From a virus, in the UHGV virus genome UHGV-0019208: a stretch of 17,786 bases of DNA; one strand, written 5' to 3'. Of this stretch, positions 6,115 through 7,173 are shown piece by piece. Within the stretch, counting starts at the first letter, position 1. Every line of letters begins with the position of its first letter. Under the pieces are notes generated by a model. The model saw only the letters and a program-made list of their open reading frames with translations, made no database searches and was not told the origin of the DNA. The position numbers and the translations under genes were made by a program.

Positions 6115-7173
6115 ATGTTGGACGCACGAAAAAATATTGATTTAATCAAAGATATTGACGAAATTTCAGAGAAGGGAATTCAAGCATTTGGGTTATTATA
6201 TGATGAATCCGGGCACTCAAATCTTCACGATCCTCTACTGAGGTGGTGTGATTTTCTTTTACGCTACATTGCTCCACAAAAACGAATAATTTTAAAATCA
6301 GATCGATTTCCTGAAAATATTCACGATGGCGCAAGGGTTGGATTGCAGAGAATCGAGATGTTGTTTACTACTGGTGGTGATGTAAATCCTTATCAGAGTA
6401 AAACATTAACATTATTCAATGACACAAGCGGTAAAAAGGCGACGAAAAGAACGGATAACCTATGGGCTGATTGGGGGATTCATCACCTCCATCTGCCATT
6501 AAATCCAGTAAGTTCAAGTAAAAAATACTCAGATCGTGCTGAGTGGGTATTATTCCTGAAGGTGTACTCAAACGCTGTGCTTTTTATTGATATAAAACAT
6601 CATGATAAAAACATAGAACCAAATCTTTTTTCTCAAAGAGATTTGGTAGAAACATTCATACGCAACTGGCCAGAAGCAGCAGAAATATTTGAAATGAAAG
6701 GTATTTCAGGCTTAGCTTGTATTCATCCAACTACAGATTCAGATATTGCAAACTTAAGAAAAAATGGAATAAATCTGCCCGTAGTGATGGATGGAAAAGC
6801 ATATGCCCCATTAGGAATGGGAATAACAACAGCGCGTACCGCTGTGAGCGTATCAACTTATCGAAATAAAATATATCATTGTGCTAAGCACATAGAGAAA
6901 ATATTTATGGATGAAGATAGTCCATACATAAAAGAAATAAAATCTCTAGGTGTAAACAATCCTGAATTCAAGATGCATATGTTTGATGATGGTGGGTTAG
7001 GTATTGTTGAGATAAATACTAGAAAAGGCTGGAAATTCCTTAGAAAAAATGCTGATGCGTCTCATGATGTTTTCAGTTTTTTAAATAACGCACTGATGCC
7101 AGAGTGGGCTAGTCCTGTTGTATTACAGTTCTGGGAAAAAACTCATTGTAAAATGGAGGGAATTGAAAATTAA
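6115..7173 (+). CDS. Hypothetical protein, 352 aa, no family recognised; AT-rich cargo gene at the cos hotspot
   Basis: ATG 6115 with GGAG RBS 5 nt upstream. Long clean ORF in low-GC DNA, divergent from the GmrSD-like gene across the cos region. A weak D...DIK pattern (SDRAEW...FIDIKHH) could be a PD-(D/E)xK-like motif, but this is speculative. Confidence 0.7.
   Translation: MLDARKNIDLIKDIDEISEKGIQAFGLLYDESGHSNLHDPLLRWCDFLLRYIAPQKRIILKSDRFPENIHDGARVGLQRIEMLFTTGGDVNPYQSKTLTLFNDTSGKKATKRTDNLWADWGIHHLHLPLNPVSSSKKYSDRAEWVLFLKVYSNAVLFIDIKHHDKNIEPNLFSQRDLVETFIRNWPEAAEIFEMKGISGLACIHPTTDSDIANLRKNGINLPVVMDGKAYAPLGMGITTARTAVSVSTYRNKIYHCAKHIEKIFMDEDSPYIKEIKSLGVNNPEFKMHMFDDGGLGIVEINTRKGWKFLRKNADASHDVFSFLNNALMPEWASPVVLQFWEKTHCKMEGIEN

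Follow-up and report, generated by a model that had tools for sequence, protein, structure and literature searches.

In this work we have examined an open reading frame (ORF) at positions 6115–7173 of the virus genome UHGV-0019208, the whole of which, 17,786 nucleotides in length, is referred to below as the window, and we identify this ORF as the anti-phage defence gene PD-T4-7. An initial annotation made from the sequence alone had described a clean, AT-rich frame encoding 352 amino acids and preceded by a good ribosome-binding site; all of this, including the coordinates, was confirmed, and the translation agrees with the motifs which had been quoted from it. The frame lies in an AT-rich island at approximately 3500–7250, where the GC content is about 0.35 at the ORF compared with about 0.54 in the surrounding prophage backbone. 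Across 5750–7250 the values are 0.35–0.38, as against 0.53–0.59 in the terminase and replication parts of the backbone.

The PADLOC model PD-T4-7 (PDLC04066) matches the ORF product over its full length (E = 2.8e-144, 478 bits, protein residues 1–342 against profile positions 1–335 of 337). PD-T4-7 is one of the 21 systems which Vassallo, Doering, Littlehale, Teodoro and Laub obtained by functional selection (Nat Microbiol 2022; PMC9519451). Its source was a single coding sequence, RRN43039.1, of Escherichia coli UMB0103; it was selected on T4 and then validated in a low-copy plasmid lacking a promoter, the gene being driven by its native one, and there this fragment alone sufficed for defence (PMC9519451). 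The defence was classed as abortive infection and the protein was labelled “RelE toxin-like”, a domain call that rested on a 51% HHpred match (PMC9519451). The 3′ parts of the published cloning primers PD-T4-7-R and PD-T4-7-F (Table S8 of PMC9519451) match the window with 0 mismatches at 5692–5709 (+) and 7320–7340 (−), respectively. The amplicon predicted from the window is 1649 bp long and the published one 1650 bp; its ends lie 423 and 167 bp from the ORF, and the published distances are 424 and 167 bp (Table S2 of PMC9519451). The ORF has the same length as published, 1059 bp, and is the only sizeable intact one within the amplicon. It follows from the primer matches, the amplicon and the offsets of the ORF that the window holds the very fragment which was shown to give defence. 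Given the ORF length, the primers, the full-length PADLOC match and the prophage setting, which is of the P2 type in both cases, we have practically no doubt that the ORF is PD-T4-7, and by these measures no difference from the gene of E. coli UMB0103 was detected.

The protein of the window is the common PD-T4-7 allele, and its exact sequence is recorded in 992 blocks of an assembly collection and in 492 contigs. A near-identical stretch of E. coli ET350 carries the annotation of a P2-type prophage whose CI, CII and Fil genes are of the 186 type, and the ORF there is a “hypothetical protein” (WP_023568849.1), as it is in RefSeq in all 48 complete E. coli genomes carrying PD-T4-7. Scans of the protein against Pfam, PHROGs and NCBIfam returned no family, Pfam being silent even at E <= 10; tblastn against 50,697 phage genomes gave zero matches, and the matches to ankyrin and MLKL that came from a profile search of PDB sequences were no better than chance. 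With these three family collections silent, it is understandable that the initial annotation recognised no family, a statement which holds for them and fails for PADLOC. Its suggestion of an anti-phage function was right, since the gene is experimentally validated (PMC9519451), whereas the expectation of an undescribed defence gene was mistaken, because PD-T4-7 was described in 2022. The identification as such therefore adds little, the gene and its phenotype being published and already caught by defence-annotation tools.

The coordinates of the features are collected in Table 1. As the published clone was made in a promoterless vector, a promoter must lie somewhere in 5692–6114. The inverted repeat downstream of the gene is possibly a bidirectional terminator; it was not called in our terminator scan because its loop is longer than 8 nt. 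The prophage backbone resumes at this repeat, and most other prophages align from window position 7338 onward. The same kind of scan over 5500–7400 found 6 hairpin-plus-T-run sites where 1.3 were expected. Four of them are within the PD-T4-7 ORF (6500–6850, both strands), three of the four being antisense, and the excess probably reflects the AT-rich composition. A scan of the window with Rfam found zero RNA families, and thus no known RNA antitoxin is present in it.

Table 1. Features of the window, with strand and basis
Feature	Coordinates	Strand	Basis and remarks
PD-T4-7 coding sequence	6115–7173	+	352 amino acids plus stop, ATG start; ORF list and translation
Fragment cloned as PD-T4-7 by Vassallo et al. 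2022	5692–7340	+	Native promoter, ORF and 3′ flank
Candidate sigma-70-like promoter, TTGAAA-18-TATAGT	5975–6004	+	Consensus match only, 10/12; inside the AT-rich cargo, ~110 nt upstream of the ATG
Shine-Dalgarno sequence GGAG	6104–6107	+	7 nt before the ATG of PD-T4-7; sequence reading
N-terminal domain, residues 1–192, predicted RelE/ParE (BECR)-type fold	6115–6690	+	Fold prediction
Most conserved motif, D114-x-L-W-A-D-W-G-I-H-H124-L-H126 (loop and strand 2)	6454–6492	+	H126 99%; candidate catalytic histidines
D159-I-K-H-H163, end of strand 4 (contains the “DIK” of the initial annotation)	6589–6603	+	D159 93%, H163 100%, K161 not conserved
C-terminal domain, residues 193–352	6691–7170	+	Proposed sensor or regulatory module
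GC-rich inverted repeat GCCCCCA-16 nt-TGGGGGC	7310–7339		Flanked by the stop codons of PD-T4-7 and dinI; sequence reading
Terminase ATPase	963–2729		Gene-family scan
Portal protein	2726–3763		Gene-family scan
GmrSD-family (DUF262/DUF1524) type IV restriction-like protein	3800–5581	−	593 amino acids, AT-rich; Pfam GmrSD_N 2.1e-32, GmrSD_C 1.1e-11
cos-like core GGCGTGGCGGGG	5709–5720	−	One match, 0.07 expected; inside backbone segment 5693–5936
DinI	7348–7653	−	Gene-family scan
Replication protein A	7934–10348	−	Gene-family scan
Dam-type N6-adenine methyltransferase	10345–11274	−	PF02086 1.3e-76; PADLOC “orphan methyltransferase”

The initial annotation had also placed the ORF in the old/tin hotspot of P2-like prophages, and gene order together with the variable cargo bears out both this placement and its account of the neighbours. 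The gene is situated between portal gene Q and replication gene A, at a site whose content varies in otherwise collinear prophages, as is the case for cargo of P2 defence hotspot 1; the cos/old-tin location of P2-like prophages was described as a defence hotspot by Vassallo et al. (2022; PMC9519451) and by Rousset et al. (2022). The P2 genes old and tin and the other cargo of hotspot 1 occupy the same slot, from gene A/dinI to portal gene Q, and have the same role in prophage defence, but their proteins are unrelated to PD-T4-7. Among 5,426 complete E. coli genomes, approximately 1,216 have in common the cos core of about 240 bp (window 5693–5936), and about 1,170 share this segment only. The dinI side is common to 1,125 genomes, in which the point of return to the backbone falls within 7243–7350, and the PD-T4-7 cargo was found in only 47–48. 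When the same slot was compared in other P2/186-like prophages, as the initial annotation had proposed, varied cargo was encountered. The prophage of KL53 has a DUF4145 protein there, and in that of VG888-46E9 the Q-side position is taken by retron St85 and the A-side one by SIR2 with an ATPase. Inspection of the slot beside cos in P2-like prophages does lead to true defence genes.

The core sequence GGCGTGGCGGGG, which we take to be the cohesive-end sequence of 186/P2, lies in a segment that divides a Q-side from an A-side cargo sub-slot, with the GmrSD-family protein in the former and PD-T4-7 in the latter. The two genes occur together in 47 of the 48 E. coli genomes with PD-T4-7 cargo. In one locus (GCA_027239925.1, L015, 5477–6511, −), an identical PD-T4-7 protein is paired with a 344-amino acid DUF4062 protein which replaces GmrSD across cos, and the two sides are therefore independent sub-slots whose cargo is exchanged separately. 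A dependence of PD-T4-7 on its GmrSD neighbour was considered and rejected, because the published clone lacks GmrSD and the DUF4062 gene stands in its place in this locus. The GmrSD-family protein also matches PADLOC HEC-06 (7.4e-75), the “Orf5” models and phrog_21165. As a group, GmrSD enzymes carry out type IV restriction of DNA with glucosylated hydroxymethylcytosine; if the protein of the window has this target, two independent anti-T-even cargo genes would flank cos in this prophage. A 59-amino acid ORF overlapping cos (5658–5837) was set aside, as it has no family and no RefSeq annotation and is cut by the functional clone. Further along, the Dam methylase gene belongs to the early operon, in which it precedes replication gene A and is translationally coupled to it, and the prophage integrase is at 14327–15343. 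Beyond the integrase we observed a very AT-rich ORF of 216 amino acids (15358–16008, +; GC about 0.31) which matches phrog_21256, of unknown function, and has no Pfam or PADLOC match, followed by a second tyrosine integrase of the P4 type with an Arm-DNA-bind_3 domain (16191–17564, +). This could be a further cargo gene at the end next to the attachment site, or else a second element may have integrated in tandem.

PD-T4-7 belongs to a large family. A word-indexed search returned 129 relatives, all of them unnamed and without Pfam domains, and an exhaustive profile search recovered 3,472 cluster representatives at E <= 1e-3, of which 1,219 were found at E <= 1e-30; nearly all are 290–350 amino acids long and span both halves of the protein. 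The family comprises about 3,500 clusters at 50% identity in Proteobacteria, Firmicutes and Bacteroidota, and distant relatives are carried on plasmids of Priestia, Hymenobacter, Campylobacter and others. Conservation was assessed in 121 representatives with pairwise identity <= 50%, in which a Pfam scan detected nothing recurrent and no toxin family. In this set D114, H124 and H163 are invariant, and R57, G87, L116, W120, H126, D159, P186, R215, G218, G234 and G236 are at least 90% conserved, the maximum falling at residues 111–126. Residues 193–245 are conserved as well (R215, G218, Y230, G234, G236, A240, T242). The least conserved part is 246–352, where the mean top-residue frequency is 0.24 compared with 0.43–0.44 elsewhere and which is shortened in a subfamily of about 290 amino acids. 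The two-domain fusion is thus a constant feature of the family, with a conserved toxin-like core and a variable tail.

Two kinds of unusual relatives were observed. The first is a single known sequence, P0116 (298 amino acids, from a Logan contig of 3,094 bp), whose residues 13–129 are 45% identical to PD-T4-7 10–127; the similarity ends exactly at “WGIHHLH”, and the remainder is a DUF1780 domain (PF08682, “putative endonuclease”; E 2.7e-15). The sequence may reflect a real domain swap, in which case the join cuts across the predicted RelE-like sheet, or it may be a chimera created in assembly. The second is a homologue with 31% identity (L019 831–1811 and L020 829–1809) which aligns in one frame over residues 9–339 and is split into two ORFs by gene callers. 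It must therefore contain one or more in-frame stops, which points either to a pseudogene or to a source organism in whose genetic code a stop codon has been reassigned. Naturally split toxin and regulator genes were sought among the short matches and rejected, as stops interrupt the single frame of the L019 and L020 homologues, and the L018 contig is short.

The structural predictions give, with high confidence, a toxin fold of the RelE/ParE (BECR) type for residues 1–192. The predicted elements are helices at 10–24 and 40–50, a strand at 58–61, a helix at 71–86, strands at 122–126, 144–150 and 154–162, and a helix at 175–184; as in the RelE/ParE superfamily, N-terminal helices are predicted to pack on a 3–4-stranded antiparallel sheet. 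The best matches in the fold search are RNases, namely RelE, HigB1, YoeB and YafQ. Foldseek gave no match to the PDB at E <= 0.001, and the only plausible ones were YafQ, HigB1, ParE2 and Cami1; for the C-terminal domain no known fold neighbour was found. In the order of the secondary structure, H124 and H126 are on strand 2, R141 is just before strand 3, and D159 and H163 are at the end of strand 4, so that these invariant or near-invariant residues all lie on or beside predicted strands 2–4. In YafQ, H50, H63, D67 and H87 are invariant in our alignment A6, and the conserved residues of PD-T4-7 appear to fall broadly where His-dependent members such as YafQ carry catalytic ones.

Is PD-T4-7 then a member of the YafO family? 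We found no Pfam match to YafO (PF13957) at E <= 10 for PD-T4-7 and none in its 121 relatives. An hhalign comparison with a 15-sequence YafO alignment gave a weak, topologically sensible result (probability 3–7%, E 0.005–0.014) in which WGIHHLHL is paired with VAHIHLA and FIDI with LIAIL. A single YafO sequence gave nothing, and with the YafQ alignment only strand 3 was aligned. These alignments do not establish sequence homology to YafO or YafQ. The fold search is the stronger evidence, and what it speaks for is the fold of the superfamily and not a place in the YafO family. It places the RelE/BECR assignment on firmer ground than the 51% HHpred match and singles out D114, H124, H126, D159 and H163.

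How might such a protein defend the cell? On balance we consider it probable that PD-T4-7 is a single-chain RNase with a RelE fold which shuts down translation once infection has been sensed. The gene is a self-contained, single-gene abortive-infection cargo with its own promoter, borne by a P2/186-like prophage on the A side of its cos site. In the manner of RelE, YafQ and YafO, the N-terminal domain would be an endoribonuclease whose target is most likely mRNA, whether on the ribosome or away from it, and in uninfected cells the fused C-terminal part would hold it inactive. T4 infection may be sensed through the variable C-terminal region, leading to release of the RNase; with translation halted, the infected cell would be killed or arrested before it makes phage. 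PD-T4-7 would in this way be a fused toxin and regulator without a separate antitoxin. The conserved fusion and the variable tail are the basis on which we propose the C-terminal domain as both autoinhibitor and sensor of the phage trigger, and this domain is the likely place of infection sensing. The functional clone holds only one intact ORF, and no conserved neighbour or antitoxin gene was found in five distant contexts, including those in Methylophaga, Burkholderia, Serratia and Variovorax and comprising, among others, a prophage end and small islands. Since there is no antitoxin gene, PD-T4-7 is not a type II toxin–antitoxin module. Small unannotated ORFs adjoin some distant homologues, one of 56 amino acids upstream in Variovorax (L011, 7814–7984) and one of 90 amino acids downstream in Methylophaga (L006, 7058–7330). 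Both are absent from the other loci examined and we do not treat them as partners.

It may be, instead, that the RelE-like fold is a non-catalytic scaffold, and that defence comes from the binding or sequestration of a phage or ribosomal component or from an unrecognised enzymatic activity of residues 193–245 and the C-terminal domain. This would fit with the C-terminal domain having no known fold neighbour, with residues 193–245, which contain a Gly-rich G-x-G-x-T-T-A-x-T motif, being as conserved as the N-terminal domain, and with the lack of significant sequence homology to any RNase family. However, the strongest conservation in the protein, at residues 111–126, is on the RelE-like sheet and the adjoining loop, and His and Asp residues that do not vary are more typical of a catalytic site than of a scaffold; we therefore regard this alternative as unlikely, though it carries some weight. 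More improbable still is that the domain acts in the manner of ParE, poisoning DNA gyrase or binding another protein target, so that its release upon infection blocks replication of phage and host. A RelE/ParE-type fold would accommodate such a role, but the best fold matches are RNases, and the invariant His-x-His, Asp and His cluster resembles that of His-dependent RelE-family RNases such as YafQ; we know of no ParE protein with such a set of residues. Finally, we give almost no credence to the PD-(D/E)xK-type DNase for which the initial annotation had speculatively read a D...D-I-K pattern (SDRAEW...FIDIKHH) and which would cut phage DNA: D159 is well conserved at the end of a beta strand and P0116 exchanges everything after “HHLH” for a putative endonuclease domain, but the reading fails on motif conservation and fold, as K161, unlike D159 and H163, is not conserved and the region is predicted to be RelE/ParE-like, not like a restriction endonuclease.

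An RNase acting on translation would liken PD-T4-7 to toxins of the RelE, YafQ or YafO type, yet it belongs to none of their sequence families. In comparison with RelE, HigB, YoeB, YafQ and YafO, it is about four times larger and carries a fused domain, some 160 residues long, for which no fold is known. Unlike them, it has no antitoxin gene, no significant similarity to their Pfam families, and a long, highly conserved loop (residues 87–121) before strand 2. A 2025 survey of multidomain RelE/ParE defence toxins omits PD-T4-7 because it began from Pfam families (PMC11980606), and no mechanistic paper on PD-T4-7 was found in a literature search that did not cover subscription journals, which is not proof of absence. 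Conceptually, PD-T4-7 would seem closest to fused toxin–regulator proteins such as CapRel and to sensor–RelE fusions such as Cami1. Cami1 (PDB 8phb, 8phj) is a CRISPR-associated CARF-RelE ribosome-dependent RNase whose CARF sensor binds cyclic oligoadenylate, whereas PD-T4-7 has neither a CARF domain nor an associated signalling enzyme. CapRel is a fused toxin–antitoxin defence protein which senses a phage capsid protein, and both its autoinhibition and its direct sensing have been demonstrated (PMC9712102). Like CapRel, PD-T4-7 is a prophage-borne abortive-infection defence made of a single polypeptide, in which the toxin domain is joined to a more variable C-terminal part with possible roles in inhibiting the toxin and in sensing the phage; the effector of CapRel, however, is a RelA/SpoT-type tRNA pyrophosphokinase and not a predicted RelE-type fold, and for PD-T4-7 autoinhibition and sensing are only hypothesised. 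Perhaps, and this we put forward tentatively, PD-T4-7 is the founding member of a large Pfam-less family in which a RelE-fold RNase is coupled to a sensor domain whose fold has not been seen before; by direct recognition of a phage component this domain would release the RNase, making PD-T4-7 a one-protein, antitoxin-free counterpart of RelBE acting as an innate immune receptor. If this is true, PD-T4-7 parallels CapRel with a different effector and a different sensor.
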